This document shows positions 1,828-28,500 of a stretch of 46,357 nt of DNA, piece by piece. The translations under genes were made by a program, and so were the position numbers. The DNA is from Phoronis australis (lineage: Eukaryota; Animalia; Phoronida). The stretch lies in NCBI GenBank assembly GCA_002633005.1, contig NMRA01000444.1:332130-378486 (forward strand). The letters run 5' to 3'. The notes under the pieces were generated by a model. It did no database searches, had not been told where the DNA came from, and was given only the letters and a program-made list of their open reading frames with translations. Numbering within the stretch: the stretch's first letter is position 1; the number at the start of each line of letters is the position of its first letter.

Positions 1828-1855
1828 TGTTTTTTTATTTTGTTTCTTCTTGCAG

Positions 1856-2327
1856 AGACCTTCAGCCAGATCTTGCAGAGGTGGAGCAACTTGTGGGGAA
1901 GCCAGAGGAGGCCACCAGCCAATCTCGACCCGTATACAAGTGCGCCGAGTGTGACAGGACGTTCACCAAATTTTACACGCTGAAGCGGCACGAAAAGACT
2001 TGCTCACCGTTAATTAAACTTACCTGTTGTTCACATTGTAAGCGTAGGTTTTCAGCTAGGCACGCGTGCCGAAAACACCAACGCAAGACCGGCCACGACG
2101 GAACGACAGAAATACTGGTTCAGAACCGGAAACATGCAAAGGCTGTCGCTGCCGCAGAACGCCGGCGAGAGGTAGACGCCAGAAGGGACGTTCCCCAGCC
2201 ATTTCCTGAAGTTACGGTGGCGCGAGACGAGGCAGTGCGTTGGGACCGAGAAGGCCGGATGTATGTCTCCCCCAAACAGCACTGGTTCCGTGTCCCCGTC
2301 GAGCCATACCGCCGTTATATTAGCTAG
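1856..2327 (+). CDS. Retrotransposon-borne accessory protein with two zinc fingers (C2HC + C2H2); probably the second exon of a spliced subgenomic mRNA (unspliced ORF 1827-2327)
   Basis: YKCAECDRTFTKFYTLKRHEKTC and CSHCKRRFSARHACRKHQRKTGH (1941-2096). It is preceded by a long pyrimidine tract ending TTGCAG (AG 1854-1855) and has no internal stops. Confidence 0.75.
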
Positions 2328-2565
2328 CTAGTGTTTTTAGTTCGTTTGTATGTGTACAGGTGATGGCCGCACCTTAATTGTTTTCTTTTATTCATTTTTT
2401 GTATTAGTTTGATTTTTTTATTACGGGCAGTGTTACTGTGTAAGTTGCTCATGGTGTTTGGATAGTTTCTTTTTGTTGATTTTGATATCGATATGTTTAA
2501 GTGGTGTGAAGTTCACTCCTGTTTGTTTTATTTTTTTATTATCAGTCACGGGTGTGACATGATCT

Positions 2566-2578
2566 GAGGCAGGGGGAG
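2566..2578 (+). other. Polypurine tract
   Basis: GAGGCAGGGGGAG directly before the TGTAAC start of the LTR. Confidence 0.88.
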
Positions 2579-3177
2579 TGTAACAGGAGTGCCCTGGACA
2601 TGATTATGTAAGTGAGATATATGCGCCCTCTAGTGGTCAAGCTGTGTATTACGTATGGAATTTTCCTATGATGTTGAGTCCTTTGGACATGGCCAAATAT
2701 GGTCAGAAGCTAGGAGCTATGGGCCTTGCCCTTCAGATCGTGTCTGATTGGTTGAAATTGTGTACTTAAGCTTTGTCTCTGTCAGACACGAGGAGTCCAG
2801 TCGCAGAGTTCAAGAAGCAAACATTTACACCTTCACTCACACCAAATTGCAACTGTTTGTGCAGCTTTCGGGCTCCTCCCGAACTTGGTTGCATCTCACC
2901 TTTCGGATCTGAATAACCAAATTGCCCCGTTCTTGCACACACAACTATTAATCAAAGACTGGCGTGCCCGTGTATCAAAACTGTATAAATCACAACGCTG
3001 CGATACTAAATCATGGAACAACTGGATTGCTTGTAAGTGTGAAATATTGTAGTTATATATTCTCACAATAAACCTAGTATGTATTATTCACCAACTTTTA
3101 GTTTTCAATATCACCCTCAGTCCGCACCGGGCTCATAAAATCGGGGCGCCTTGGTCGTAGATACCGCCCCCGTTACA
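2579..3177 (+). repeat. 3' long terminal repeat (599 bp)
   Basis: Begins TGTAAC after the PPT and ends GTTACA (6-bp terminal inverted repeat). It contains ATTGG (CCAAT) ~2747, TATA-like TACTTAA ~2763 and AATAAA 3067-3072. The partner LTR is not in the window. Confidence 0.85.
3013..3032 (+). CDS. Putative LTR-encoded leader mini-exon (MEQLDC + 2 nt, phase-2 donor)
   Basis: aaatcATGG context, first ATG after the TATA-like box at ~2763, followed by GTAAGT at 3033-3038. Its phase matches the acceptor at 1855. Confidence 0.55.
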
Positions 3178-3436: not shown

Positions 3437-4156
3437 TATGTTTTGATTTAGACCATTTGTCACTACAAAGCTGGTCTCGACTTGTTTAAAACTTGAGTGA
3501 GAGGTGAGTTCTGCACTTGATAACAATTGGCAATTGTTCAAGAACATAAAGTCATAAAACAAGTCATTGTGACTAACTAACTTGTTGAGGATTTTCTCTA
3601 GCAATAACTAGCTGTTAGTTCTTTCAAGTACCGTAAATTGCTATGAGACTAATTTCATAATGGCAGGCGGCCAAAATCAAGTCAGTTTTCAAATTGATGC
3701 TCTCATTGTTGTGTGGTCATCATATTGACAGTCAAGTATGTGGCAGTGCCATGCATAGAGCCAACTTTTGAAAATTCTATGTTGGTAAGGAATCTATTTT
3801 TAGGCTTTTTAGTACTGTCGGTGGTATTAGTAATTTTCATTTAAGTTGCAGCTGCCATTTGATTCCAAGCTATAAACTTTATGTAGTTTTAATTTACTCA
3901 TTTTACTTGCCATTACTTTGAGTATGTGGCTTTATGAACATAGCCTGATCGATATGAAATGGTGCCCGGATGTGTGTCCCAGTTTTAAAACTCTGTTACA
4001 TGTTCCTAAAATTGTCTTACACCATAGAATGTGTCACTTTGTTGAGGATTTTCTGCTGGTGTATGATTGGGAAATTCCAATGAAAAACCTTAATATTGGT
4101 TTGGAGTAAAACTGTGTTGTTGGTTGTTAAATGCTAACATCTTGTTTACTTTTCAG

Positions 4157-4211
4157 GTTCATGTACTCTATAGCTCCGTTCTGGAAAGTCCCTTATGAAG
4201 ATCAAATTACG
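4157..4211 (+). CDS. TRMT2-like exon (FMYSIAPFWKVPYEDQIT)
   Basis: tttcag acceptor, gtaact donor; resembles TRMT2A TPLWxVPYxEQL. Confidence 0.82.
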
Positions 4212-7200
4212 GTAACTTTTAATCTAGTTAGTTTTCAGCCTCACCACAAAACAAAGTTACAACACCTTTTGAGAATTGTCACTACTTCCCCTTAACAGTA
4301 TTGCTGTGATCGTGACATACAACAGTTTTATTGATCTCTGAATTGTAAAGCCATTCTGGAGCATTTGCTAACTTTTGGTATGTTGCACATCTCTGAATTA
4401 AAGCATTTGTTATTACGTAAACTGCATTCCATCATTTAAGTTCTGCTCTGCTAAAAAACAAATACACAATTCCTTATTTACTAACATATTAGAGTGTGTC
4501 ACAGCATGTTAACATGTAAATCAGTCCACTTTCGTCTTCTCGTAACTTATTTACAGTTGAAGGTATTACTGAATAGGAACATAGAAAGTGTGTGTTAATC
4601 CATTCTCAAAAAGCCTGATAGAATGACTTGAATATTAAAATCTTCCAAGCACCAACGAGTAGCCCCTTCTGTAATACCAACTCGTTACCGTTTGCCTGAC
4701 AACCGTATTTCTCAACGGGTACTATTATCAACACGTGAATTCTATTGCCGTTTTGCCGAGACTTGCGAGGATACAATGCACTGAGACTAAAGGTTTTCAC
4801 TTTATTTGCCAAGTTTCATTTTTCGTGTATTTCATATGAGTTGTCGTGCCAGAGATTCCATTTTGGTGTACAATTGGCTTGTTTTCAGGTGTTGGCTGTC
4901 AATAGTCAGCTGTATTATTGGGAAGTTCTGTTTTGTTAAAAGCAAACAGTTATCTGCACAATTGCTTATATTCACAATAAAAGCTATCTCTTTCATGCAT
5001 ATGTTTTTGTGTTTCAGAAAAAACAGACAGCTGTTAGAGAGTATCTGAGGACCATCTGGATGGGTATTCGAGCTAAATTACCAAGCTCTCTTTCCTCCAC
5101 AAAGTAATTTTTATCTCCTTACAGTACAATGCATTACAGATGTATATTGGTTTGGAAGTTGTGCGTATATAAGCAACAAGATGCTTGCTTTTTTACTTTG
5201 GGGAACGCCACGTGTTTGATAACGTTACTTGTGTGATAACATTACACTTGTGTGATGATGTTACTCGTGTGATAACGTTACTTGAATGTATGATAACATT
5301 ACTTGTGTGATAACGTTACTCTTGTGATAATGTTACTTGTGTGATAACGTTACTTTTGTGATAATGTTACTTGTGTGATAACGTTACTTGTGTGTTAATG
5401 TTACTTTTGTGATAACTTTACTTGTGTGATAACGTTACTTGTGTGATAACGTTGCTTGTGTGATAACGTTGCTTGTGTGATAACGTTGCTTGAACTGCCC
5501 CAACATACCTTGGCAGCCAACTATCTGTATGAAGACTATCGTAGTGAAAATACAGCTAGGTATCACTGTGTGTTCAGTTGCCGACAGACCTCGTACTCAG
5601 TCCTTGTAGTTCTTCTCATCACTTTACTGTGTAAATTGTGTCAATATGTAGAGCTAAAGACCGGCAGGGGTGCATGCAAAATCTGGGAGTCAACCAACAC
5701 TGACCATGCCCGTTTAAGCCGTTTAAGTGAAAAAACAATCTAATACATGTCATTTTCTTGTGTAATCCTCTGCCTTTTGTAACAAACAAAAGGTATTTCG
5801 TCATTTTGAAACGAGTATACTTGTGACACATTCACGCACCATTTCCTAAAAGTAATGTGATAGGTTTAAGTGCTCTCAAGGAAGTGCTAGCTGAAAGCTA
5901 GTGAGGCAACACACATTGTAAACATTGTGTTAATAAGAGTGACAAAATGTGAGACATTTGGCTGTCAGAAGATGGCAATACTTTTAGGCATGTCTGCATT
6001 AACATAGTATGCCTTTGAAAAAGTTGTCCACTGGTTTTATGTAAAAAGAAACTAAAGCTGTTATTAACAATGAAAAATGAAAAATATATTGAAAAGACTT
6101 GCATTGATATAAGGTGATGGTGATCAATCTAATATAAATTTCTAATAGAATTTGTACTTTAATTTGGCATGCCTTTTCTTATGTGATCAAAGTTATTAAC
6201 CGGAATTAACTGTAAATCTTGTCTTTATTTCTAGGTTTTACTCAGAATTCTTTGCTTGTGATGTTGATGACATTATTGCATCGGTAAGATCTCGATCTAA
6301 TAGCAAAACTCCCCTTCTCAATGTCTATACTTATCAAATTGATGCTTAGTGTGTTGAATATAACAGTGAAGTGGGGCCGTGTTCTGTAATGTTGGTCACT
6401 TGTTAGACATTTGTGGTGAGAAATCATGGCTTATTCAACAAAAATAGTGAGTCTCTCACATAAGTCAAGAATGTGATCTATTCCAATCGGTTCACAGACA
6501 GCCATTTTGCTAGTACGTCCTAGGAGCACTAGTGAGGTATTGCCTTTTACTGGCGGCAGCTTGCGTACTCTCACAGGTGGCAGCTTGCGTACTCTCACTG
6601 AATGTGCAAGGAACATTAGGGAACACACTCGTGACCAGTTCCGTTACATTATGTCCTCTGCTTGATTTGTCATCTGTGTCATCTTAGGCTTGGCGGAGCC
6701 AGGGTAATTTGACTGCACAGTGGCTTAAAGTTTTGCTGATGATTGTTAATCGTGGATGTCGTTCACATAAAATAGACCTTTTGAATTTGATATGCAAAGC
6801 AATGAGAGCGGTTCTTTGTGAACCCTGCTCGTGTCACACAGCTGTCCCAGTTGGACTGTGTAAGTAAACATAGCTTGTGGTAGTGGCTGAGAAGATAACT
6901 GTTTTATTATCCCCTATGGGTTTTGAATTAGCAAGCCCAGAATAGTATGGTGACATTCAAGTTAGTTTGCATAGTGACGTGTTATCCCAATGCCTGTTCC
7001 GTTTTTACCAATGTTATCGTCATAACTGAATTTTTTGTTCATTTGCTTGTGCTATGTTGATTACATTTTGGAAATTATAACCTATTAACTCAATTGAAGA
7101 TTTCAAATTAGCTTTTTCTTCTGTTTGAAATAAAATGTTATATTTTCACATTTTTGTTATAGCCTTTCCAACAGTTCTATAGATGCGAGTGTGAATATGG

Positions 7201-10200
7201 TATTGGGCGTGGCGGAGAGGATGGAAAAAGTAAGGATTCTTCTTACGTTGTATTGATTTATTGGAATCATGACAACACAAAATATAAGTCATAATTAGAC
7301 AAAATATTGACTGTTACAGTACAGAAGTTAAGTTAAGCTTGTCAAGTCATAAAATGTCTTCAAAATTGAGTATAAGGAGCAATTGCATGTTCTTTTTAGA
7401 ATCTTGTGTTTTACGCAAACATTGTTAAGTCTAATCAACACGCCACCTGTGGGGCTGTGACCATATCACATGACCTAATGAATGTAAGTCTGAAAACATT
7501 TCTACCCCAAGCAGGACTCGATCCCATGACCTCCTGCTAACTGTGCAGACGCCCTGGTCCACTAAGCTATTGGGACCAGTGGACCACTGATCGACTACAG
7601 AAGTCTAATTACATAAAATCTTCTGTTTTGTTACAAATTACACAGTTTATGTCAATTATTGCAGTTGTACAGAAATGTTGGAACGCTAAACACTTTCAGT
7701 ATGCTTTGTACTTCCCAACAAAGAGAATGACCTTAACTCAAGGTTGTGGAGTCGAATCCGACTTTGGCTCCTCAACTTGGTTTTAACTATATATTAATAA
7801 AGCATAAAAATGGTTCCAGGTGAATAGTGCAGTGGGCCCACATGAGTGACCTCTGTACGTCTGGTACACGTTCTACCTGACTGCCTGCAATTATTTTTTT
7901 TTTACTTCAGAACGAGTTGTTGGTTTGCGACTGGGGGGAATGGATACACCAAAGCTCATCAGTCCGTCTAACGGAAACCTTGTAGACAAGGCCTTGCTGC
8001 CTGTTGTGGAGGTTTGTCTAGCAGTAGTCTGCTGTTGTTTTGTACATAGAGGTTAACTGGTGTTCATATATCATTCAGAACCATTTCTCAGTCGTACAAT
8101 TTCGGTATTGTTCTTTTCTTTGTTTTGTAATGATAAATTCTGGCGTTCTTTACTTTCGGGGGAAAATGAAGCAAGAAAAAGCTGCGTCTTGGATACGACT
8201 GCTTTATCTCATCCAGAACTGTAAACACTCAGCCGCCCAGAACACATTTGAAGTACAGTAGTAATTGACCTAACAATAGCTAGTGACTCCTATATTAGAA
8301 ACAGCAAGTTACAACAATCAGTGTGATCAACTACTAATAATAATTATTTATTGTTACATAATTATTTTTTATGTATCACATTATTAATAATTGATTAATT
8401 CTTTCAGTTTTATTCCGATTTATAATTAATCTTATTTATTGACAGTTAATAATATTGTAGCTGCAAGATTGCTAAATTTGTTCGTGACTCGAAAAAGCAA
8501 TATGCTGTTCTATTCTGTGAAAATGTGTTTGATTTTTTGTGATTAAGTAGTACCTTGAATAGAGATTGTTGTCATGAACAGATGTCACGAAGTAGAACGA
8601 TTGTGTTTCCACTATTCATATTAAGTCTGTCGTCTTTGAGTGAATGTGAAATAAACTCTAATGTCTTCTGTAGAGTTTTGAGCTGTTTCTGCAACATTCA
8701 ATATTCGATGTCTATGACTCGGACACAAAAGCTGGACACTGGTCTCAACTGCTGCTGAAGACCACCCGTCAAGGGGAGGTACTCGGGGTGATTTCGTTCT
8801 TGGCAAAACACCTGGAGGAGGTAGGACATTGAATGTTTCATTGTTGGAGCACAACTCCGCCTCACCTGAGTGATAGTCATTTCATTGGCCAGATCTACTG
8901 GTCAGTCATTTTTATTTTGGTTTAAAATGTTGAACCAACCTTAAGTTGTTGAATATTTCCAGATTATCCTCAATAATCTTTTTAAAGATAGCATGTGAAG
9001 TTGATATTGCATTGAAACTGCCAATGTGTGCATGATGACATCATGGAAATGACATCACTTGTGGTGTGTACAAGTGTGAGGAAGTTATGTTACAAACTAT
9101 GTAACTTTGGGTCATATAACCAAAAAAGAAGTGGACATTGTTACCAAGTTCAAGGACGGATTTTCTGTCCTCTGAATCTGATGTCAGATGTGCTGGCAGT
9201 TTGCCAGAGATCTGTAGAAAGGTTCAATAATGATGGATGGTGATTGATAACAGTTGGTTATCCCTATTTGTTCTGTCCAACAGAATGCTCTGCTGCTGTC
9301 AACGTNNNNNNNNNNNNNNNNNNNNNNNNNNNNNNNNNNNNNNNNNNNNNNNNNNNNNNNNNNNNNNNNNNNNNNNNNNNNNNNNNNNNNNNNNNNNNNN
9401 NNNNNNNNNNNNNNNNNNNNNNNNNNNNNNNNNNNNNNNNNNNNNNNNNNNNNNNNNNNNNNNNNNNNNNNNNNNNNNNNNNNNNNNNNNNNNNNNNNNN
9501 NNNNNNNNNNNNNNNNNNNNNNNNNNNNNNNNNNNNNNNNNNNNNNNNNNNNNNNNNNNNNNNNNNNNNNNNNNNNNNNNNNNNNNNNNNNNTTTTTTTT
9601 TACTTCAGAACGAGTTGTTGGTTTGCGACTGGGGGGAATGGATACACCAAAGCTCATCAGTCCGTCTAACGGAAACCTTGTAGACAAGGCCTTGCTGCCT
9701 GTTGTGGAGGTTTGTCTAGCAGTAGTCTGCTGTTGTTTTGTACATAGAGGTTAACTGGTGTTCATATATCATTCAGAACCATTTCTCAGTCGTACAATTT
9801 CGGTATTGTTCTTTTCTTTGTTTTGTAATGATAAATTCTGGCGTTCTTTACTTTCGGGGGAAAATGAAGCAAGAAAAAGCTGCGTCTTGGATATGACTGC
9901 TTTATCTCACTCCTCATCCAGAACTGTAAACACTCAGCCGCCCAGAACACATTTGAAGTACAGTAGTAATTGACCTAACAATAGCTAGTGACTCCTATTT
10001 TAGAAACAGCAAGTTACAACAATCAGTGTGATCAACTACTAATAATAATTATTTATTGTTACATAATTATTTTTTATGTATCACATTATTAATAATTGAT
10101 TAATTCTTTCAGTTTTATTCCGATTTATAATTAATCTTATTTATTGACTGTTAATAATATTGTAGCTGCAAGATTGCTAAATTTGTTCGTGACTCAAAAA

Positions 10201-13200
10201 AGCAATATGCAGTTCTATTCTGTGAAAATGTGTTTGATTTTTTGTGATTAAATAGTACCTTGAATAGAGATTGTTGTCATGAACAGATGTCACGAAGTAG
10301 AACGATTGTGTTTCCACTATTCATATTAAGTCTGTCGTCTTTGAGTGAACGTGAAATAAACTCTGTCTTCTGTAGAGTTTTGAGCTGTTTCTGCAACATT
10401 CATTATTCGATGTCTATGACTCGGACACAAAAGCTGGACACTGGTCTCAACTTCTGCTGAAGACCACCCGTCAAGGGGAGGTACTCGGGGTGATTACGTT
10501 CTTGGCTAAACACCTGGAGGAGGTAGGACATTGAATGTTTCATTGTTGGAGCACAGCTCCGCCTCACCTGAGTGATAGTCATTTCATTGGCCAGATCTAC
10601 TGGTCAGTCATTTTTATTTTGGTTTAAAATGTTAAACCAACCTTAAGTTGTTGAATATTTCCAGATTATCCTCAATAATCTTTTTAAAGATAGCATGTGA
10701 AGTTGCCATTGCATTGAAACCGCCAATATGTGCATGATGACATCATGGAAATGACATCACTTGTGGGGTGTACAAGTGTGAGGAAGTTATGTTACAAACT
10801 ATGTAACTTTGAGTCATCCAACCAAAACTAATAGACAAAGAAGTGGACATTGTTACCAAGTTCAAGGACGGATTTTCCGTCCTCTGAATCTGATGTTAGA
10901 TGTGCTGGCAGTTTGCCAGAGATCTGTAGAAAGGTTCAATAATGATGGATGGTGATTGATAACAGTTGGTTATCCCTATTTGTTCTGTCCAACAGAATGC
11001 TCTGCTGCTGTCAACGTGCCAGGTCAAAAATCTTGAAATGAGACTCATAAAGCTGGCTTGACCTTGGCTTGACCTAGTTTGGTTTTATTTGACAAGCATG
11101 GCTTTCAGTTATAACAAATTGCTCGTTCTTCTCAAGTGCACAAAGTATGATCTGAGCTGGGAACAAGTCAAGACCAGCTTTATAGTCATGAGGAATATGA
11201 AGAAGTGTCTTTTCTAATTGAAGCTCACAGCATTTAAATGACGGTTGTAGCCTTACTATAAGTGTTTTACACTGTTATCATTTAAATGTAGCCTTATTGT
11301 AAGTGTTTTACACTGTTATCATTTCAGAGCGATGTTGAGGTCGCCAAGAATTCCCTGATGAAACATTTCTCTCAAGGGAATGATGTAGGCTGTCCCAAGC
11401 TGTTATCTCTTTACTTTCAGTAAGTTTTGTTATTGTTAATGATGTTTGTGTGGCCTAGTGGGATAGGTGTTTGTTTCCTTTACTCAAGGTCGTCTGTTGG
11501 AGTCCGACTGAGGCACACTGCTAGACCACTGAGCCAGGTCTCTAGCTCCTCAGCTGGGATTTAACTGTATTAATAAAGCATAAAAATGGTTCCAGGTGAT
11601 CAGTGCAATGGACCCACCCTAGCGGTCTGCATAATGTGTACCAGAATGCCTGCAATTATTTTTATAGGATCGTAGTTGTAGGGACTGCAGCTGTGATAGC
11701 CAGGGGACACAATTTGATTACAGCCACTTGCTACAGGGGACACAACTTGATTACAGCCACTTGCTGTAGGGGACGTAACTTGATAACAGCCACTTGCAAT
11801 AATTTGTTCTTAGCCCATGCATGACTTCAGTGAGTGAATGTCTAGTGATTTAGATTCATGAGTAAGTAGCTAAGAAGGGTGCACTTAAATATGACGGATG
11901 GAAATTGGACTGAATGTGGCGCTACCTCACTGTTTACAGTGCCTAAACCAAAACATTGAATTATATGATTCTTTGTTTCATCGGTTTACTCCAACCTCTT
12001 TGCTAGTTTTTCTGTGGTTTTCGTTTAATGATTTCTCCACGTTGAACTGGTGAGTGACGAGTACACTTGTAGCTGTTGACAGTTGTATTTTTGGCAAATG
12101 ATTGTTACTACTGGATTTAAACTCATCTTCTAATTGTACTTGAAACAGTACTTTATATATGCCATCGTCTCATCAGTTAAGCTACTGATTTATCCACTAA
12201 TTATGAGAAAGTATTTGCAATGCCTTCAATAGTTACCATAACCACGATTGGTTGGAAGAATCTGGAAAATAGTTTTCTTCAGTCTGTAATTCAACACTTC
12301 AGTGATGGCAGCCATTTTATTGATAATACTTTATTTGTGTGTCTAGGCTTGTGGTCCCTGCGTGCTGTGTTGCAGGATTACTTGCAAACCACCTTTTACT
12401 AGCTTGGTTACGTGATCTTATGAGGTCTCCCTAAAGTTGTAAGAGACTAGTGTTAAGGAACACACCTCAGCTTGGTTGTTTGCCTAGCTGCCTAAATCCA
12501 TTACTGTGTTATGTCAAATGTACGACTTCTTTCATCTTTTTTATCCGAAACACGATATCACGTTTACCGTCTCACCCAATCTCTGGGGTGCAGGTTTCAG
12601 TTTGTCATGTAGGTGAAGTGTTGGAGATGTGCCCAGGCAACGGCTGTCATTTTACATTTCCAGCACGTTGAGGTCACAACTGGCTGTGTTTGTGTTTTCA
12701 GTGTCTCCAAAGGTGAGAAAGTGCCATCGTCCACCAGTCTGTTGTTCACTAGAGGTGAAGCTATAGAGAAGATATGCCAGACCTCCTTCAGGCTGTCCCG
12801 TGATGTGAGCCTCAGAGGTGGGTCGTATTGTGTCATCTTACCACCTTAGAGCGCGCATAAACACACCTGTCTGTAATAACTGTTGTAATAATACTTCAGT
12901 TTGGGACAAAATATGGCTTACAGTTGAAATTTCATTTTATCAAATTTCTCAACAAAAATAACTTTTCAGGAAAATTCACTTGGCTTTTGACTGGGTTTGT
13001 GTGTCGTATTAGTAAACAACATTTGGTAAAGTTTTGAGCATTTGCAACAATGTGGTAAGCTTCTTAACAATAGAAATATGGGAATTTTAGCTATTCTATT
13101 TGTTCCAAATTAAAGATTTTTCACTGTGTTAGGTTTAGAATGTTTGTTCTTCATTCTAGAGTGTTTTACAACAACTATGACTTTAGTAGTTTGCTAATGA

Positions 13201-16200
13201 GAGTGAAATGAAGATTAAATACCTTCAAGTACCGACTGTCTTGAAAGCTGAAGTCTGTCCTCGCATTGAGTTTCTTCATGTAGAGAAACTATGTGGGATT
13301 ATCCTGTTATTAATTTATTAAAAGTGAAATATTACAACGTTATTTTGATACCAAGGTTTTTGGATACCTCTTCAGTGTTGTCCATTGTCTATATAGCCTA
13401 GCTGCATTACATGAAGGTAATATATAGCCTAGCTATATTACATGAAGGTAATATATAACATAGCTGTATTACATGAAGGTAATATATAACATAGCTGTAT
13501 TACATGAAGGTAATATATAGCCTAGCTATATTACATGAAAGTAATATATAGCCTAGCTGTATTACATGGAAGTAATATATAGCCTAGCTATAGTACATGA
13601 AAGTAATATATAGCCTAGCTATATTACACGAAGGTAATATATAGCCTAGCTGTATTACATGAAAGTAATATATAGCCTAGCTATATTTCATGAAGGTAAT
13701 ATATAACCTAGCTGTATTACATGAAGGTAATATATATAGCCTAGCTGTATTACATGAAGATAATGTATAGCCTTGCTGTATTACATGAAGGTAATGTATA
13801 GCCTTGCTGTATTACATGAAGGTAATATATAACCTAGCTGTATTACATGAAGGTAATATATAACCTAGCTGCATTACATGAAGGTAATATATAGCCTAGC
13901 TGTATTACATGAAGGCAATATATAGCCTTGCTGTATTACACAAAGGTAATGTATAGCCTAGCTGTATTACATGAAGGTAATTAGCAATAGTAGTGATTTA
14001 CAACTTCCAAGCACATTTCAATTATGTGTGAAGCAAATGAGTAAATTAACCTGTCTAATGAAGCTTTTCGTTGTTGCCTTGTTTGTGTATAATGTAATTC
14101 ATGGTTTGCTGTGTTTATTTGACTTCAGCAAACCTGTCAGCTGCAGAATGTTTGTACAAGAAAATTGTTGAGTTGAGCAACTTGTCTTGCGATGACGCTG
14201 TAATTGACGTCTGCTGCGGGGCTGGGCTTACTGGACAGATCTTGGACTCTAAGCTGGTTAGTGTCGATAAGATTAACAGTTCACGTAGTGGTTGTTATGG
14301 CAGAATTTTTGTGCTGACCATGAAAAATGGAATATGCTTCAGGTTGTTTAAGACTGGCATTCAAAAATGACGACGTATTTCCTTGTAACACTTAGTCGTC
14401 AAATACTGTAAAAATGCCATTTCTTGTTGTATTGTGTTTTTTGTGTAATACAATTCAGGGAGTTCTCTCTACAACTCCTGGGGTCTGAGAAGTGACGCTA
14501 GATTTAAGTCTTACGCCTTATGTTCCACACAACTATTTTGGAAAAATAAATAAATTTTACTCCGTCACTAAGGTCATTACTGCTACTTACTGAGATAGTT
14601 TGTATATTAATTGCAAGGCTGTGATGTGCTGATAATAGCAAGGCTGTGATGTGCTGATAATAGCAAGGCTGTGATGTGCTGATAATAGCAAGGGTAAACC
14701 TTGATTCAATAATTGTCAAGAGGCAGCGGATGACCTAATTTTGGATTTAATTCCTAAGTCACTTTCCGTGACACAGTTCCCTGGTCATTATTGTTGAGTT
14801 CATCTTCTGCTAGAGAAAGTCCTCACGATGAGAACGCAGCGTCGGTCAGATGAAATGTAAGTCCAGTATTAGTTTTAATATTTTTTACTGATATTTATCA
14901 ACTGATTGTCTAATATTCACCAACTGGTTGAGTACATCTATTACTTCCTTGTTCCAGTCGTGTTCTAGTGTGATTGGCATTGACAGCTCCCCTAGTGCCA
15001 TTGAAGAGGCAAGATACAATGCACATTTAAACGGTAAGCTGAGCTATCTCTTTCATGTTCTTTTTCATCTTTATGCAATATCGATTGTTTATACAGTCCA
15101 ATTTGTCAATTCTGGTGCACATATTTGCTATAGAAAAAAAATCCCAACTGTGACTGTATCGCAACCAATGACACCAGAACTAGAACTGGTTGGCTTTAAT
15201 GATTGGAATTTTTCTTTAATTTTATGAGTCCCCTTCATTATCACTTTTACTTTAGTTTTAATGAAAAATATTAGTATTTCAGCAGATTTTGTTTGTGAGA
15301 TTTGTAAGCTTTAATTTTGTTTAATAACCTCAATATCTACAAGTCTTATTTCCGAGATGTCTTACACGCCTGTATATTCTTTGATACCTCTTCATCACAA
15401 GATATCTTACACACCTGTATATTCTTTGATTATACCTCCGCATTACAAAAACGATCTGAGTGATATATAATTTAAGTGGCGTAGCAGTTGGATTATTTTC
15501 ATTTTGTAACAGCACATTTTAGATTTTCAATGTAACTGAATAGGCTACAGTTAAAGTGACAAACCCGCGTTCCTTCGAGAAAACTAATTTTTAGTTGAGA
15601 CAAGTTACCACAATAAAACTGGTTCCTTCTTGTTTCTTACTCAAATGGGTTTTGGTCTTCCAAGAAACTGAAGCCTCATTATTGCAGTGAATCACTTGAT
15701 ATTCCCTGATAACTCATCTTATAGAGCCTTACTTCAATTATGAACTGTCAGTCCAGATATCTTACCTATTTTGACTACAGGATAATTTGAGATCAATTTT
15801 GCAAGGGTAAGTGGTCTTAATTAAATGTTGGTTGTGGTGACTAAAAGTGGGTTTATAGCCACTTTAAACCATCCTCTGTTGATTTCTGATCGATTGATGT
15901 CTGATTGATTGATTTCTAATCATGAATTAAAGAATGTCCTAGCACGCGTGATTGATTAAGTTTTGTGCTTATTTCTTCTGAGTGCCAGGCTGAGCACTGT
16001 ACTGTCTAATGTCTTGTCTCAGGTTTAGTGAACACTGAGTACGTTCACGGGAAAGTGGAGACATCTTTGAAAGGAGCTTTACAACGTCCCTGTGTGAATG
16101 GCAAGTCTGTAACTGTAGTCATTGACCCGACGAAAACTGGACTGGGTAAGGGCGGCTGTGAGCTATGATAGGCAACAATAGATAGAACATCTGTGAACTG

Positions 16201-19200
16201 TAGGACAATTAAAAGCATTGTCAATGATATCTGATTGTCATGTTAGATCTTTAGGTATGATAGTTGTGTTCAATGTATGACTACATTCTATCCTCGGGTG
16301 TAAGATATCATTGTATGATTGATGTAATGGAGTGATATTATACAGCATTAAGCAGGACTGTACTCTACTAAACGACAAATATCCACCGGAGACTTATATT
16401 TGCATTATAAAGGTGTTATAAGTTGCGATAGGCTGAACATCCCCACTTCATTTTGTGACTGACATGCATGTCAAGGTCATGATCAGGGCATATTCCATAA
16501 TGCCAGTCTCAAGAAACCTTGGCTTTTGGAATAGAAATAGTTTACTTATTAACAGTTTTCTGCCACAACTCAAAATTCCAGTGTAACCTACCAAATCACT
16601 TCTGTGGCAGCATTTTACAAGTGTATACTTGACTGATTGAAATTTTTCTCGTGAAACATTCGCATTTTACTAGCATGATCTAACTCAGTAGAAACTTACT
16701 CTTTGCACATCTCGAAGTCTGAGATGTTATCAAAAGGTTGTGGTTCAAGATGTGATGTTCTTCCTTGTATGTGGAATGTGACAAACCTCATTTTTGTCTC
16801 TCGTTGCAGACAACCGTTGCATCCTTAGATTGAGGAGGAAGAGAAGTGTTCGACGTGTTATCTACATCTGCACGATCCCTTGTGCACCTTGTGACAATTT
16901 TGTAAGGTAAAGGTCACCTTAGGTCATTGCAGCTAGAATAATGTCTCTTAGTATTGTTAAGATCCTTTAATGGCCATTGAAGCTTTTGAACAGGCTTTGA
17001 CAGCAACTGGATCTCTTGCCGTTTTGAAGCAAAATAATGCTGTGACCTTTGCCAACCCTCAAAACAATTAAAACTGAAAACTCAGGAAAAAGTTTGCTAA
17101 ATTGGAAAGCATTACTGACTCCTAGGAATCATCAGTATGTTCCACAGGTTAAGACCACCCACCTCAAACCAATGTACACACTTTGTGACTGAGGATATGT
17201 TTTAGTTGAGGATTCTCTCAGTGACAGTATTAATTATGAAAAAATAGGTTATCTAACCCATTTCAGGTGTAATCACTAGAAAGTGTTTTTTTAACAGAAA
17301 ATGCTATAAAATAGTAAGTTCTTTTAGTTGTGCTTTCTGTTAGAAATATTAACTGATATTGAATGCAAATTTTCACATGTTTTTTCTAGTGTCAGTTGTT
17401 TGGTTTTGTCTTAATATATATCTTTAAATGAAGGAAATTTTGTTATTTACAAGAGTGGCCACTCCAAGTATACAATGGTTTGGTCATTGTGACATCTGTG
17501 TGTTTGTTTATTTGTCAAGCTCAGTCACCATCACACTATGTTCAAGTCTGACTTTGTCTTGTCATCGTTTCTTTCAGCTTGGTGCTACCAAATGAAACTC
17601 CTCTTGACGGCAGCTCATTCAAGTTGGTACGAGTGGCAGCCGTGGATGTCTGCCCTAACACCAGTTATTGCCAGGCTGTGTTGCTGTTTGAGAAGAGCTC
17701 TGAAGATGGTTGGGAAGTGGGTGAGGTAAGTGAAGAAGAGTCTGAGGACGAACCTGAAGAGATAGAGACTGATGAAGGTGTTGAGGTGGTTGAAGCTACC
17801 AAGGAAGTGAGGCGTCAAGGTGAAGGTGATGCATCAAAAAAGAGTGAGGAGGATGTTGTGGTTATTGACTCTGTTAAACCAGATGTCATTGTAATTGAAA
17901 TCGACAGTGACAGTGACGATGAAGTGAAAATTGTAAGTAAACCTACGAAAGAGTCACTGCATAAGTTGGACTTGTCCAAAGTGAAAAGGGAAGAAGAAGC
18001 TGTGACTGAAGCCCCGGCTATCAAACTGGAGGAGGTTGATGTCAGTACTGAATCAATCGGAGTTGGCTCTGAAGGTGGTACTGCAGCAAATGTTGAAGAC
18101 ATGTCTCAGTGTAGTGTGAAGGAAGAGCCAGGATTGGGAGAACCTGTAGCAGTGTCCTCAGTGATAGTAAAGCAGGAGAAGGGAGACATTGAAGGAGACA
18201 GTCATGTGAAGTCTGGCAGCTTCTTGCAGGATGTTGATGTGAAACAAGAGATGGTTGAAGTGAAAGTTGAGGTGTTCCACGGAGGTTCTTGGGCTACTGG
18301 GAAAGAATCTCATGAAGATAGTGAAATGACTGAAGATGTCACTACTGGTGAAACTGAAGTAAACCCTGTGCACAGAACTGAAGAGTTGATGAATGATGAG
18401 ATGAACATATCTTCAGCAACTCCAAACAAGACTAAAGTGTGTGAAGACAAACAAGCTTTTGAAGTAGTAACTGGTTCTAGTATTTCATTGCCATCACCTC
18501 AATTTGGTGAAGAGAACCAACAGTCAACCGCTTCACCACCAATAGTCCAAGCTTTGGATGAAGTACATGGTGAGGATGAGCAAAATTCAGGGGAAGAGGT
18601 TCCACTTTCAGCTGATTCTGGTACTTCAGAACTACCGCCTCAGTACGTCCAGCAAGCTTGTGGAAAGAGTGAATATGGAACAGAGAAAGGGAACACATCA
18701 AGCCTTTCAGCAGCTTCCTCCCAAGTTGTAGAAGAAGTACAAGAGAAAGTTAAGCGTGCTGTGGAGACTGTGGCATCAGTAACAGTAGTTAATAATTGTT
18801 CTANTAGTTGAGGATTCTCTCAGTGACAGTATTAATTATGAAAAAATAGGTTATCTAACCCATTTCAGGTGTAATCACTAGAAAGTGTTTTTTTAACAGA
18901 AAATGCTATAAAATAGTAAGTTCTTTCAGTTGTGCTTTCTGTTAGAAATATTAACTGATATTGAATGCAAATTTTCACATGTTTTTTCTAGTGTCAGTTG
19001 TTTGGTTTTGTCTTAATATATATCTTTAAATGAAGGAAATTTTGTTATTTACGAGAGTGGCCACTCCAAGTATACAATGGTTTGGTCATTGTGACATCTG
19101 TGTGTTTGTTTATTTGTCAAGCTCAGTCACCATCACACTACGTTCAAGTCTGACTTTGTCTTGTCATCGTTTCTTACAGCTTGGTACTACCAAATGAAAC

Positions 19201-21715
19201 TCCTCTGGAAGGCAGCTCATTCAAGTTGGTGCGAGTGGCAGCCGTGGATGTCTGCCCTAACACCAGTTATTGCCAGGCTGTGTTGCTGTTTGAGAAGAGC
19301 TCTGAAGATGGTTGGGAAGTGGGTGAGGTAAGTGAAGAAGAGTCTGAGGAGGAACCTGAAGAGATAGAGACTGATGAAGGTGTTGAGGAGGTGGTTGAAG
19401 CTACCAAGGGAGCGAGACGTCAAGGTGAAGGTGATGCATCAGAAAAGAGCGAGGAGGATGTTGTGGTTGTTGAGTCAGTTAAACCAGATGTCATTGTAAT
19501 TGAAATCGACAGTGATAGTGACGATGAAGTGGAAATTGTAAGTAAACCTACGAAAGAGTCACTGCATAAGTTAGACTTGTCCAAAGTGAAAAGGGAAGAA
19601 GAAGCTGTGACTGAAGCCCCGGCTATCAAACGGGAGGAGGTTGATGTCAGTACTGAATCAATCAGAGTTGGCTCTGAAGGTGGTACTGCAGCAAAAGTTG
19701 AAGACATGTCTCAGTGTAGTGTGAAGGAAGAGCCAGGATTGGGAGAACCTGTAGCAGTGTCCTCAGTGATAGTAAAGCAGGAGAAGGGAAACATTGAAGG
19801 AGACAGTCATGTGAAGTCTGGCAGCTTCTTGCAGGATGTTGATGTGAGACAAGAGAGGGTTGAAGTGAAAGTTGAGGTGTTCCACGGAGGTTCTTGGGCT
19901 ACTGGGAAAGAATCTCATGAAGATAGTGAAATGACTGAAGATGTCACTACTGGTGAAACTGAAGTAAACCCTGTGCACAGAACTGAAGAGTTGATGAATG
20001 ATGATATGAACATATCTTCAGCAACTCCAAACAAGACTAAAGTGTGTGAAGACAAACAAGCTTTTGAAGTAGTAACTGGTTCTAGTATTTCATTGCCATC
20101 ACCTCAATTTGGTGAAGAGAACCAACAGTCAACCGCTTCACCACCAATAGTCCAAGCTTTGGATGAAGTACATGGTGAGGATGAGCAAAATTCAGGGGAA
20201 GAGGTTCCACTTTCAGCTGATTCTGGTACTTCAGAACTACCGCCTCAGTACGTCCAGCAAGCTTGTGGAAAGAGTGAATATGGAACAGAGAAAGGGAACA
20301 CATCAAGCCTTTCAGCAGCTTCCTCCCAAGTTGTAGAAGAAGTACAAGAGAAAGTTAAGCGTGCTGTGGAGACTGTGGCATCAGTAACAGTAGTTAATAA
20401 TTGTTCTACTGTGTCAACTGATCCTTCTGTAGAAGAGTGTATGGAACTTTCAGAGAAAGAAGACAAAGAGTCTTCAGACATTGCTACTGATAAACCAGTT
20501 TGTAAAAATGTTGAAGAAAATACTGGAGAGATGATAGACATGGCAAGGACAGAGCTCCATGATGCATGCATCACATTACCACCTGAAACTTCTAAGAAAC
20601 ATGCAACAGAGCCTAACAAGTTGGTTGATGAGGTAGTTGTTGCCCAAAATGAGAATGACTCTTCTCTAGAAAGTGCTGATGAGGCAAAAGAGTCCTCTGC
20701 GTCACTGGCCGCAGATAAAGGCAGTGTAGATGGCTCTGTGTTGGCAAGCCTCAGCAGTGCTGTTCCAAAAAGTCCACAACCATTTAATACAGCTGCTGCA
20801 GCTATTGAAGAAATATCACAAAAGAGGTTTGAAGATGAATGTACTCCAACAAAGCACCGAAGACTTGATGATGATTCTGCTTCACCGTTAGAAATGGAAA
20901 GAATGTCTTCTGGAGAACACTCATCTCCAACCAAAAGAGGAAGAGGCAGGGGTCGTGGCAGAGGTCGGGGGAGAGGTCGAGGGAAAGCTGTGAAAGTTCA
21001 GGAGACCAAGGAACATGATACAGAACTCAACAATGAGGTTGACGTAGCAGCTGTTTCCAGGAAACAAAATTACTCAGAATATAATGATGAGATAAAAGAG
21101 TCCTCTGCAGTACAGAAGACTGGTAAAAGTGACAAAGATGGCTCTGTGCTTGCAAGTCACAGCAGTACTATTCCGTTAAGCCTACAGGCGGTTACTGCTG
21201 CTGCTTGTTTGGAAGAAATGTCAGAAAAAAGTGTTGAAGGCAAAGGTACTCTCGCAAAGCGCCAAAAAATGGACGATTCTTCTTCACTTAGGGAATTGGA
21301 TGAGGAGGCAATGTATTCTGGTGAACACTCAACACCAACTAAACGAGGTAGAGGTAGAGGAAGAAGCAGGGGCCGTGGAAGTCGTGGGAGAGCTGTTAAA
21401 GTTGCGGAGACACTAACGCACGAAGCAGACACTGGCAAGTTGGTTTGTGAAAGTACAGCAGAAGATTTAGTTACTGATAAGCAAGCAAACAGCTCAGAAG
21501 ATATAGCACGCAGAACACGTGCTGGACAAAGTTCTTCTGGAGGTCATATCAAGAAAGACCAACAGTCTAGTGCAGCTCCCTCTGTTGAAGATAAAGATCT
21601 AGAAGAAGACAAAGAATTAGAAACATTGAGTTCCGTCGACTCAACTCTAGGGATGAGCCCTAGGGGAAGAGGACGAGGTAGAGGCCGGGGCAGGGGACGA
21701 AAGAGAAAACGTTGA
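4157..21715 (+). CDS. TRMT2-like: TRMT2/TrmA-family tRNA (uracil-5-)-methyltransferase-like gene, divergent (probable pseudoenzyme) with long acidic tail; 5' exons probably upstream of the window
   Basis: Exons 4157-4211, 5018-5103, 6235-6283, 7163-7229, 7911-8011 (dup 9609-9709), 8674-8820 (dup 10376-10522), 11328-11419, 12702-12817, 14129-14256, 14958-15033, 16023-16145, 16810-16906, 19180-21715 (partial dup from 17578). All are GT-AG and phase-consistent, giving ~1223 aa collinear with TRMT2A motifs (PFWKVPYEDQ, GHWSQLLLKTT, IDVCCGAG, VIGID, VDVCPNT). Confidence 0.88.
5018..5103 (+). CDS. TRMT2-like exon (KKQTAVREYLRTIW...)
   Basis: tttcag/gtaatt; phases 0-2 fit the neighbours. Confidence 0.75.
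5212..5492. repeat. Minisatellite, 17-bp unit, ~16 copies
   Basis: Unit ttgtgtgataacgttac, containing the palindrome taacgtta. Confidence 0.92.
6235..6283 (+). CDS. TRMT2-like exon (FYSEFFACDVDDIIAS)
   Basis: ttctag/gtaaga; phases 2-0. Confidence 0.75.
7163..7229 (+). CDS. TRMT2-like exon (PFQQFYRCECEYGIGRGGEDGK)
   Basis: Aligns to family PxxxxYRNKCEFxIG; ttatag/gtaagg. Confidence 0.82.
7430..7610 (-). mobile_element. tRNA-derived SINE-like repeat, family A
   Basis: The minus strand of 7505-7575 has A box TAGCTTAGTGG and B box GGATCGAGTCC. A related copy lies at ~35625-35790. Confidence 0.6.
7725..7903 (+). mobile_element. SINE-like interspersed repeat, family B
   Basis: B-box-like GTCGAATCC. 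It shares tattaataaagcataaaaatggttccaggtga and tgcctgcaattattttt with 11450-11666. Confidence 0.6.
7911..8011 (+). CDS. TRMT2-like exon (RVVGLRLGG...PVVE), copy 1
   Basis: cttcag/gtttgt; VGxRLG motif. Confidence 0.8.
8674..8820 (+). CDS. TRMT2-like exon (SFELFLQ...GHWSQLLLKTTRQGE...), copy 1
   Basis: ctgtag/gtagga; matches family GHWxQLxVRT. Confidence 0.85.
9593..11017 (+). repeat. Near-identical second copy of ~7895-9305 (exon copies 9609-9709 and 10376-10522); likely alternate haplotype
   Basis: Direct repeat separated only by the N-gap, with scattered SNPs and small indels. Confidence 0.9.
11328..11419 (+). CDS. TRMT2-like exon (SDVEVAKNSLMKHF...LSLYF)
   Basis: tttcag/gtaagt; SLYF motif. 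Confidence 0.82.
11450..11666 (+). mobile_element. SINE-like repeat, family B
   Basis: A-box-like TGGCCTAGTGG at the start; body shared with 7725-7903. Confidence 0.6.
11701..11797. repeat. 33-bp tandem repeat x3
   Basis: Unit caggggacacaacttgattacagccacttgcta. Confidence 0.85.
12702..12817 (+). CDS. TRMT2-like exon (...EKICQTSFRLSRDVSLR)
   Basis: tttcag/gtgggt; aligns to ExLxGLxFRISPxAFFQ. Confidence 0.8.
13390..13980. repeat. Minisatellite, ~31-bp unit, ~19 copies
   Basis: Unit tatatagcctagctgtattacatgaaggtaa. Confidence 0.93.
14129..14256 (+). CDS. TRMT2-like exon with SAM-binding motif I (NLSAAECLY...IDVCCGAG)
   Basis: cttcag/gttagt; matches NTxAAEVLY...LDVCCGTG. Confidence 0.9.
14613..14692. 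repeat. 25-bp tandem repeat x3
   Basis: Unit gcaaggctgtgatgtgctgataata. Confidence 0.85.
14958..15033 (+). CDS. TRMT2-like exon (SCSSVIGIDSSPSAIEEARYNAHLN)
   Basis: ttccag/gtaagc; methyltransferase VIGxD/E...A..NA motif. Confidence 0.9.
16023..16145 (+). CDS. TRMT2-like exon (LVNTEYVHGKVE...VVIDPTKTGL)
   Basis: tctcag/gtaagg; aligns to the DPPRAGL region. Confidence 0.85.
16810..16906 (+). CDS. TRMT2-like exon (NRCILRLRR...VIYICTIPCAPCDNFV)
   Basis: ttgcag/gtaaag; aligns to IRR...LLYVSCNP...NF. Confidence 0.85.
17203..18803 (+). repeat. First, truncated copy of 18805-20408 (intron end plus first ~410 codons of terminal exon, from 17578); likely alternate haplotype
   Basis: Near-identical direct repeat joined at the single N at 18804. 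Confidence 0.9.
19180..21715 (+). CDS. TRMT2-like terminal exon: end of methyltransferase fold plus ~800-aa acidic low-complexity tail with RG blocks
   Basis: 844-aa ORF after the ttacag acceptor. It starts with FKLVRVAAVDVCPNTSYCQAVLLFEK (family VDLFPxTxHxE..LFER). Confidence 0.9.
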
Positions 21716-22164: not shown

Positions 22165-22419
22165 TCATGGGGCTCTCAGTGGAGACCATTCTTTGCACAT
22201 AAAATGACCCATCAGTTCACACTGATTTCCATGGGGGCTCTCAGTGGAGACCATTCTTTGCACATAAAATGACCCATCAGTTCAAACTGTTTTCCATGGG
22301 GGCTCTCAGTGGAGACCATTCTTTGCACATAAAATGACCCATCAGTTCAAACTGTTTTCCATGGGGGCTCTCAGTGGAGACCATTCTTTGCACATAAAAT
22401 GACCCATCAGTTCAAACTG
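22165..22419. repeat. 65-bp tandem repeat, >=4 copies running into N-gap
   Basis: Unit ttccatgggggctctcagtggagaccattctttgcacataaaatgacccatcagttcaaactgtt. Confidence 0.92.
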
Positions 22420-25583: not shown

Positions 25584-28500
25584 CTAAACAAGAAACGGAA
25601 ACAAGACAATTGTCAAACAGGGTCACTTGTACTTTAAGACAATACATTCAGATAGATCAAATTTGACGTGTATAAGGCCAAGCACTTGAATGTATAACTT
25701 TATAGAGTGGGAATATCTAAAAGACTAAAAGCATACATGGAACATTATGGAATTACCCATAAAAATTTTAGAAGGATATTGAAAAAGCAATTAAAATTTT
25801 TAGTGAATATGTAGTGGAAACGAGGTTACAATTTACCTCCGGAAACAAGGAAGCCATGTCTGTGACTGCTGCATGTATCATGTCTGAACACGGCCCATAA
25901 CTGCAACATACGAAATGAGAGCAATGAGAAAATACAGAACTTAATACCCATCCCACAAATGGTTCACTCAATAGTGCTCGGGATGGGTCTGTAAATCTAC
26001 TGATTAGACTGTGAATAAGACTACACACTAAGACCACATTGTACTTACTATTCACTATTCACGCTGGGACAGTAGCAATTGGAAACGTAACACAGTCACT
26101 TAAAATTGTCCACAAAAGCCATTACCTAAAACTATTCAAAACATTCACAAAAAATGAAACTGCAGCAAACCATTTTAAATGCTTCCTGAACACTGTCATC
26201 TGCAGGAATCGTACCATATCCAGAAACTACTTCTGAAGAGAAATGTTTCAATCCACTACTTAAAAACCTCACATACATGAACGGATTACCAGCTGAACTT
26301 ACCTGTCGATTTTGTAAGCTCGAGCTGATTGCAATAGGTCTTGAATTTTGTGTGTGATGTTCTCCGTCTTTTTGACCACTTTTTCCTGACTGGGTAAATC
26401 ATCAGTACTCTCACGGTCAACAGCAGCAGTGGCTCCCTCTTCAGTCATGTCTGCCTGTGAGTCGGGGGTTAATGTAGTCCTAGAATAATGAGGTCACAAT
26501 TTATCAACAGCGTCCTTTTCACGATACCTGTTACTTAACCATTATAATTACCAAGTAATTGTCAAAACCCTGAAATTACTGCACTTAGAACTTTCAATAC
26601 AGTATTTAACACTTCAATTTTGACAATGAATAGAAAGTTATGAGAACGGTTTAGAAGCATTTCTCTTAATATATTATGTGTGCAGCCTTCAACCCACCTG
26701 TCAGATTCGCTGACATCCTGCAGTGCATTATTGTCATAGTCGGATGTGTCACTTTGCTGGTCTGGCAGTTTGGCCACTTTGTCAACCTGAAAAGGGAGGG
26801 AATACCATACAGTACGCATAGATTACAGTGGATATCAGAGGAAGAAGTTGAAAAGCACAAATTCATCATTTTCAGCCTGGGTAATAGTGTTCTGGTCCAT
26901 TTGTGACAAGAGCTTCCTAATAATTATATCAATAGTAGGACAGTGGTGTCGGGGAATAGGCGAATACTTACTACAATTTCCACAGGTCCATTGCAACAGA
27001 CTTAGTGCTTTAAATTAACTGCTCTTACTTATGAAGTCTGCTGGCCTGTTTGAGTAATTTTGCAAGATAGTGTTTTAATGTTTCAATATTCATAACAATT
27101 TTCACTGACAGAAATTGGTTTACTTCCGAACATTCTTTTCTATTGCTTTGGTAAGTGAAACAACGGCCAAAGTGGTGTTCTAGTATTTTATCGTCCATCC
27201 AACATTTCGGGCAACAGGATTCTGTTGCTCATCTTGTAGTGTTCTTATGTATCTGCAGGTTACAGTGACCTGTTATCACCCTGCATTACAAACTGCAGTT
27301 GGGGTCTGGTCAAACTCAAAAGCTTGGTGGCAAAATCAATATAAAAGAAATGCAATAAAACACTAATTATGGACGCTAATGTTATTACCTAACAAACCTG
27401 GGAAAAATAATGGGCACGAACCTTCGGTTCTAACGAAGCGGAAAATACTCTGTGATTGGGCTTACAACCTTTGATAAATGCACTTGTTGTCACTAAAAAG
27501 GGTATATATCAATGGAATAAAGAACTATAAGTGAAAAGGACGTTAAGAATACTTCATATAAATACATTGAGGTACATACAGCACTGTCAGGGAGTCTTTC
27601 CTCTTGAGAATGCATGCTATTAATCATCTCCTCTCTAAATGCTGGCTACAAAATAGAACAAAACATGCTACAATCTTTTGACAAATTAACCTGACAGGTA
27701 AAATTAAAGGTGAAGTATGGCAGGTTTAACATTCAAGTTAAATTACAATTTCAGAGCCATAGCCCGAGTATAGAACCCATTCTTCAGCCGAAAAGTATTC
27801 TAATGAAGCCATTCCACATACTACTGTTTTCGTATACGATTTTGCATTTGATTTTTTAACTCGAAGTCGTATGGGAACAGACAATTCTATGACAACACGT
27901 ATATAACTAAATCATTCGGCTTACATATATGTCATTCAACATTCATAGAGACTATGAATTTCATCACTTAACAAGACAGCATGATGCATAATATATCAGC
28001 TGTTACAACTGAACTGTATTTTAGATTTACCTAACTAGTCTAGTGACCTAGTTAAAGAGACATGTGTAATCAGCATGTAGTCTGCAGACATGTAATACAT
28101 GGTACATAACACTAGCCCCCAAGAATGTACACTTAGAAGCCAGTGTCGAGACCATGTAACATGAAATACTGGCTTACATTAAACAAGCAATACACTCCCA
28201 GCTCATATGCTGTGAAACAAAAATCAGCATCAAATATCAAATCATTATCTCGAAAAAACAGAGCACACACTATACGACATGAATAACAAAATGAACAACA
28301 TGTGACCACCAAAGCCTCCTACCATTGGCTGTGTCCATGGAGGTCTATCCTGGTCACGTTGTTCAAACATTGACTGTGGCCTGTTGCTGCTATTGCTGTT
28401 CTGTCTGCGAATAACACCCTCTGTTGGAGGTTGAGACATAGGGATTGTCTGCAGTGATTGGCCAGCCTGCATGGGCAATAAGGAGGTTGACCGTAACTTA

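Follow-up and report, generated by a model that had tools for sequence, protein, structure and literature searches.

The active-site roles of F188, Q190, D299, P300, R302, C324 and E358 are described for the E. coli m5U methyltransferase TrmA (PMC1904294, PMC2528175), and the Phe and Gln of motif X also contact the cofactor (PMC2528175). The C324A and E358Q derivatives of TrmA are inactive yet bind tRNA (PMC7641329), and the Q265A change lowers the activity of RumA 830-fold (PMC1904294). Human TRMT2A carrying K242A, F409A, Q411A, D510A and C538A together with changes in the RRM was nearly inactive with wild-type tRNA binding, and C538A alone only doubled the Km and left measurable activity in one assay (10.1101/2022.12.28.522094). 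Bovine TRMT2B, in which the cysteine has been replaced by Tyr, is predicted to be inactive (10.1101/797472). In Drosophila, Pcif1 is a catalytic-dead RNA methyltransferase with a role at chromatin (PMC10158991). A further function besides methylation has long been suspected for TrmA, Trm2 and TRMT2A, and dead multi-site mutants have been engineered to study it.

In this study we analysed a stretch of 46,357 nucleotides from Phoronis australis (contig NMRA01000444.1), referred to here as the window, which contains an intact and transcribed gene derived from TRMT2A. The initial annotation had placed it at 12702..19297, which was right as to the locus and not as to its extent, since the gene starts at 4157 or earlier and ends at 21715. 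Splice-site testing of the window gave 13 coding exons on the plus strand that form a single open frame of 1,223 codons (Table 1). All of its introns are GT-AG, with the 24 splice dinucleotides intact, and the catalytic motifs spread over these exons all fall within the one frame, including every motif that had been quoted before (YRCE, SRDVSLR, DVCCGAG, VIGID, DPTKTG, YICTIP and DVCPNTSYCQ). A search of the window for an exon encoding an RRM found none. The first acceptor lies at an ancestral coding intron position (L020), the context of the Met at 4161 is weak and an LTR element fills 1-3176, so that exons outside the window, beyond the LTR element, are possible.

The sequence around the gene can be described briefly. 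On the plus strand, 1-3176 is the 3′ part of an LTR retroelement with a purine tract, an integrase ORF at 43-1530 (Integrase_H2C2, rve) and an LTR-like segment (2579-3176) that begins with TG and ends with CA; the likely first exon of the TRMT2-like gene follows about 500 bases downstream. Between the integrase and the LTR is an ORF of 156 codons (1857-2324) with a C2H2 zinc-finger match below the cut-off and a splice-acceptor-like site 5′ of it. A multi-exon GIT1/2-type ArfGAP gene (25771-45602, minus strand), with matches to GIT_SHD, GIT_CC and, weakly, GIT1_C, stands tail to tail with the TRMT2-like gene. Intronic or intergenic minisatellites occur at 13390-13981, 22169-22419, 30378-30790 and 38130-38636, with periods of 31, 65, 15 and 69/99, respectively.

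Table 1. Exons and other features of the TRMT2-like gene, in window positions
Feature	Position	Strand	Remarks
Candidate non-coding first exon (possible)	3650..3784	+	strong GTAAG donor after 3784; needed frame has a stop; start approximate
Coding exon 1	4157..4211	+	first Met 4161-4163; PFWKVPYEDQ matches canonical TPLW..PYE.Q
Exon 2	5018..5103	+	splice model and alignment to canonical
Exon 3	6235..6283	+	donor matches an intron of canonical locus L020
Exon 4	7163..7229	+	YRNK reads YRCE (7178-7189): Asn to Cys71, Lys to Glu72
Exon 5	7911..8011	+	second allele copy 9609-9709; junction to exon 6 in 11 RNA reads
Exon 6	8674..8820	+	second allele copy 10376-10522; GHWSQL
Exon 7	11328..11419	+	junction from exon 6 in 3 reads
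Exon 8	12702..12817	+	motif X, SRDVSLR ending 12816; FFQ reads SLR: Ser235 (TrmA F188), Arg237 (Q190)
Exon 9	14129..14256	+	motif I SAM loop DVCCGAG kept, from 14206
Exon 10	14958..15033	+	VIGID; acidic Asp289 kept, D at 14982
Exon 11	16023..16145	+	motif IV DPTKTG from 16124; Asp340, Pro341 kept; Arg to Lys343
Exon 12 (97 nt)	16810..16906	+	motif VI YICTIP; Cys367 at 16869, Thr368 at 16872-16874
Last exon, first allele copy	17578..18803	+	cut at assembly N 18804; Gln of DVCPNTSYCQ at 17672-4
Last exon, complete allele copy	19180..21715	+	motif VIII Glu to Gln411 (19274-19276), then 805-residue acidic tail
Acid-flanked SIM-like stretches (aa 473-496); five PsiKxE sites (aa 515-611)	19460..19880	+	
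Three RG-repeat blocks (aa 964, 1100, 1207) and C-terminal KRKR	20924..21712	+	shuffles

The assembly contains two overlaps, which were found by comparing the window with itself. At an assembly gap 7895-9305 matches 9593-11017 (97%), and 17203-18803 is 98% identical to 18805-20408, the two being joined at a one-N gap. DNA contigs from run X1, which is possibly the source sample of the assembly and so is not independent, had a depth of 47 across introns 10-12; where the last exon begins, they gave way to two contigs with depths of 21 and 30. This split in depth identifies the overlaps as two alleles of one gene, and the gene has a single last exon; on the self-comparison and the contig depth, its apparent doubling is not a tandem duplication. 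Through these allele overlaps the assembly shows exons 5-6 and the beginning of the last exon twice, each copy open, which would mislead automatic annotation.

The canonical proteins used for comparison came from a motif scan of metagenome contigs (20 of 64 parts scanned) that returned at least 119 loci, 33 of them with near-complete ORFs. The first 418 residues of the spliced model are colinear with eukaryotic TRMT2A, and a profile built from the 33 ORFs matches the model at 215.7 bits (E 7e-68). Its best match among the loci listed (L035, protein P0001) is a TRMT2A-type protein of 583 residues with a PF05958 match and a weak RRM_1 match, to which it aligns at 212.5 bits and 29.8% identity over 409 columns with every motif colinear, and E. 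coli RlmD is matched at E 1.3e-16. At these scores the TRMT2-like identity first proposed for the gene is not due to chance. A phylogeny, which had been suggested as a check, was made as a quick tree of 35 rows; it puts the protein inside the eukaryotic group with support 96 and leaves its placement among the animal-like rows unresolved. Its terminal branch has a length of 2.87 where the median is 0.89, which leaves such a tree open to long-branch effects, and given this long branch the constraint on the protein is much relaxed.

Pfam run on 11 single exons returned weak methyltransferase matches only, together with an EBNA2 match below the cut-off that arises from the RG repeat. An Atlas lookup gave a PF05958 lead for exon 6 (0.83) and nothing usable for the last exon. 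Bud23-type proteins were the best PDB sequence matches of the SAM-loop exon; after alignment of the complete model they were set aside, the resemblance being one common to motif I sequences in general. The motif pattern search matched 0 viral contigs. Two TRMT2-like metagenome loci (L010:2411-2671 and L070:1992-2252) have SPDSFF followed by a stop codon in place of the expected motif X Gln, possibly reflecting an alternative genetic code or a broken gene.

The positions of the introns fix the register of the active site. Each of the five introns in the catalytic domain has a counterpart of the same position and phase in canonical loci (403/1, 444-445/0, 469/1, 510/1 and 542/2 on P0001); among the 12 loci examined the matching ones were L021, L047, L052, L068 and L110, and plant-like loci differ. 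The gene thus has the animal-type intron positions of the TRMT2A subfamily. The exon that carries motif VI is 97 nt long, with its Tyr codon 53 nt after the acceptor, and this geometry is identical in the window and in the three of three canonical loci that were checked. It follows from the shared introns and the exon geometry, without any gapped alignment, that FFQ|V corresponds to SLR|A, PPRAGL|H to PTKTGL|D and YVSC to YICT; for motif X (Ser235, Arg237) the anchor is a phase-1 intron common to both. Thr368 occupies the nucleophile site and Cys367 the Ser position, so the reading of a Thr at the nucleophile position with a Cys shifted by one was correct.

Within the TrmA active-site set, Asp and Pro of motif IV (D299, P300) are kept as Asp340 and Pro341, and the five other residues are replaced: Phe and Gln of motif X (F188, Q190) by Ser235 and Arg237, Arg of motif IV (R302) by Lys343, the Cys nucleophile of motif VI (C324) by Thr368 and the Glu base of motif VIII (E358) by Gln411, the last in both allele copies. 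The loss of motif IV described in the initial annotation accordingly holds for the Arg but not for the Asp. The glycine loop of motif I (G220) is kept as Gly268 and the acidic residue after strand 2 as Asp289. In the absence of the motif VI Cys, the motif VIII Glu and the motif X Gln, the Michael-addition cycle cannot run. Trapping of the product by a Glu-to-Gln change, which had also been raised, is moot here because no adduct forms without the Cys.

Conservation was scored on 24 non-redundant canonical proteins out of the 33 candidates from the at least 119 loci. These proteins have 35 invariant columns, 23 of which are kept in the TRMT2-like protein, or 17 of 26 once the nine columns of the search pattern are removed. 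The active-site columns were kept in 2 of 7 cases, compared with 15 of 19 for the other invariant columns (Fisher p=0.028), which shows that the active site has been hit hardest. When the criterion is relaxed to 90% conservation, the protein retains 39 of 71 columns, where the canonical rows retain 63-71. Of the 104 columns with a conserved hydrophobic residue, 89 are still hydrophobic, compared with 93-104 in those rows. Some conserved basic residues on the RNA side have been lost (Lys to Glu72, Arg/Lys to Ser143). Four of the 32 replaced conserved columns now hold Cys (71, 350, 367 and 404; p=0.025, post hoc), and further Cys residues occur at 371 and 374, in a total of 17 against a canonical range of 6-18. 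On the intron-fixed register and the active-site bias of the losses we agree with the earlier prediction that the protein is not an m5U enzyme, a prediction made less certain by the measurable activity that human C538A alone kept in one assay. Binding of SAM or RNA is plausible, but would have to persist despite the loss of two SAM-contacting residues of motif X and of the YRNK lysine.

Raw RNA reads carrying the same species label were placed on 13990-18800 and 9593-13385. Similar amounts read from three runs gave 58 (X5), 54 (X6) and 2 (X7) reads on 13990-18800, with first mates on the minus strand over exons, as expected of a plus-strand mRNA. Five of the eight junctions inside or at the edge of these stretches were supported by reads: 11 for exons 5-6, 3 for 6-7, 3 for 9-10 and 5 for 11-12, as well as 4 for exons 8-9, whose loose end (14127) is the SRDVSL-coding end of exon 8. 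Junctions 7-8, 10-11 and 12-13 had no listed support in the stretches examined at the threshold of 3 reads. Sense reads also cover introns 6 and 7 at exon-like depth in X5 and X6. Intron 7 (11420-12701) has a strong internal donor after 11861 and AATAAA at 11572, and read-through into it meets an immediate stop, so that a protein made from the retained form would break off ahead of the Rossmann domain; some of the product may therefore be truncated or spliced slowly. A short dispersed repeat at 11568-11617 and 7767-7841 draws many RNA reads that originate elsewhere in all three runs.

The effect of neutral change was simulated over 418 codons in 2000 runs, of which 2 were stop-free at 66% identity and 0 at 54%. 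Because the gene stands at about 30% from its nearest canonical relative and is open, neutral decay is excluded as an explanation. Expression, splicing and this simulation agree with the earlier view that the gene is not a plain pseudogene. Across those methyltransferase codons that were covered, the alleles differ by 5 silent and 3 conservative changes, with one further silent site in reads (binomial p 0.01-0.06, depending on assumptions); in the covered tail there are 5 silent and 14 replacement differences, a pN/pS of about 0.8 that looks near-neutral. The contrast between domain and tail is not significant (p ~0.1), and the pattern is suggestive only.

The main clue to function is the 805-residue tail, which was absent from the initial annotation. 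The last exon has 845 codons, and the 805 residues beyond motif VIII are rich in Glu and Ser. Three RG-repeat blocks are present, a count reached in 0 of 5000 shuffles, and two of them are preceded by S/T-P-T-K-R. Five PsiKxE SUMO-acceptor consensus sites (p=0.019 against shuffles) and the combination of SIM plus acid (p=0.045) are enriched at p values that are marginal and uncorrected, and plain SIM is not above chance (p=0.78). PsiKxE is a SUMO acceptor motif, SIM a SUMO-binding motif, RG repeats are associated with arginine methylation and KRKR-type motifs with nuclear import. The core of an AT-hook is Arg-Gly-Arg-Pro; the RG blocks lack the Pro, and Pfam AT_hook gave no match in the last exon.

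The dead site and the tail are known from one species alone. Orthologue searches with the first 60 residues of the last exon, with the SAM-loop exon and with a stack of three exons returned 33, 13 and 393 candidates, respectively, none of which scored. When simulated, the three-exon search would see relatives at about 60% identity and mostly miss those at 40-50%, and since the presence of related animals in the protein collection was uncontrolled, these blank searches are weak evidence. The literature covered, which leaves out most subscription papers, did not describe any invertebrate TRMT2A that is dead and has a tail of this kind, and a review of seven-beta-strand methyltransferases (PMC11514484) added nothing.

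Our results suggest that the TRMT2-like protein is probably a selected pseudoenzyme that serves as a non-catalytic nuclear RNA-binding adaptor. Judging from the shared introns, it may have arisen by duplication of TRMT2A at the DNA level or by degeneration in place. We lean towards a paralogue rather than a sole degenerate copy, since m5U54 is near-universal in cytosolic tRNA (10.1101/797472). The methyltransferase fold is predicted to be preserved without the m5U nucleophile, base and uracil-reading residues, and this dead fold could hold structured RNA and perhaps SAM. The acidic RG-repeat tail would then tether the protein, presumably in the nucleus, to chromatin or to SUMO-rich nuclear complexes through contacts that may depend on SUMO or on methyl-arginine. 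The RNA-binding part of this proposal is weakened by the loss of basic residues (Glu72, Ser143) and by the lack of an RRM in the window. A bolder version, which we put forward as a doubtful though not fanciful suggestion, is that the gene represents a lineage-wide, tissue-restricted offshoot of TRMT2A in which a SUMO-binding RG tail has taken the place of the RRM and the catalytic centre and which now works as a nuclear adaptor from RNA to chromatin, possibly with a cysteine-remodelled pocket.

The alternative that survives best, although we regard it as unlikely, is a dead tRNA chaperone in which the fold, like TrmA C324A, still binds the tRNA elbow and refolds it, the tail being incidental. 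The folding of tRNA by TrmA is independent of catalysis (PMC7641329), an inactive Trm2 rescues one tRNA mutant (10.1101/797472), the human multi-site TRMT2A mutant retains its tRNA affinity (10.1101/2022.12.28.522094) and the tail here tolerates many replacements. However, the YRNK lysine has been reversed to Glu, the GxWR arginine is gone and no RRM was seen in the window, the reads are very uneven among runs (58, 54 and 2), unlike what would be seen for a housekeeping tRNA factor, and the 845-codon last exon has stayed open with RG blocks that are not random. Changed chemistry, either SAM-dependent methylation of another target without a cysteine adduct or new cysteines around the former uracil pocket acting as a metal or redox site, seems to us quite improbable. 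The SAM loop, Asp289 and Asp340 are all kept, Cys has been gained at 4 of 32 replaced conserved columns (p=0.025, post hoc) and further Cys lie at 371 and 374, but the total of 17 Cys is within the canonical range of 6-18, there is no recognisable new catalytic motif and the motif X Phe and Gln that contact the cofactor (PMC2528175) have been lost.

A weak m5U methyltransferase that uses Cys367 as its nucleophile is very unlikely. This idea draws on a Cys one residue before the site, on the retained Asp340 and on the residual activity of human C538A (10.1101/2022.12.28.522094), yet the exon length sets Cys367 at the Ser position and the base Glu and the uracil-reading Gln, Phe and Arg have all been lost together, when E358Q and C324A each inactivate TrmA (PMC7641329) and Q265A by itself costs RumA an 830-fold drop in activity (PMC1904294). 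A decaying pseudogene or assembly artefact, to which the very long branch, the two overlap duplications at gaps, the intronic sense reads and the three unlisted junctions might point, is hardly credible against 1,223 open codons, 24 intact splice dinucleotides, the outcome of the simulation, losses biased to the active site, two open alleles and spliced reads that carry SRDVSL.

On the bolder version above, the gene would be a form of the tRNA U54 enzyme in which separation of function has come about naturally. It carries nearly the same set of changes as the engineered mutants, is natural and expressed, and its frame has stayed open through a long divergence; as such it offers a direct test of the fold without catalysis, and the tail points to a new role in the nucleus. 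There is reason for caution as well, as invertebrate genes annotated as "TRMT2A-like" may not be enzymes.

Compared with animal TRMT2A, yeast Trm2 and E. coli TrmA and RlmD (COG2265, PF05958), the central and catalytic domains of the TRMT2-like protein are colinear, and it has in common with the TRMT2A family the SAM loop, the Asp-Pro of motif IV and five introns. In contrast to that family, the nucleophile, the base, the motif X Phe and Gln and the motif IV Arg are replaced, no RRM is present in the window, there is an 805-residue tail and the branch is about three times the median. Bovine TRMT2B is likewise a natural gene of the TRMT2 family without the catalytic cysteine; however, it is the mitochondrial paralogue and the paper names the Cys substitution, whereas here five active-site changes are combined with a nuclear-type tail. 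Four of the five methyltransferase-domain positions of the human "catalytic death mutant" are also changed here, as mapped by spacing on P0001, with the differences that the present gene is natural, that it keeps the motif IV Asp and that it has lost the base Glu as well. Drosophila Pcif1 offers a model of how such a protein could work, as a dead RNA methyltransferase with a non-enzymatic role in the nucleus, but it belongs to an unrelated methyltransferase family, is a sole orthologue, binds the Pol II CTD and has had its function tested.
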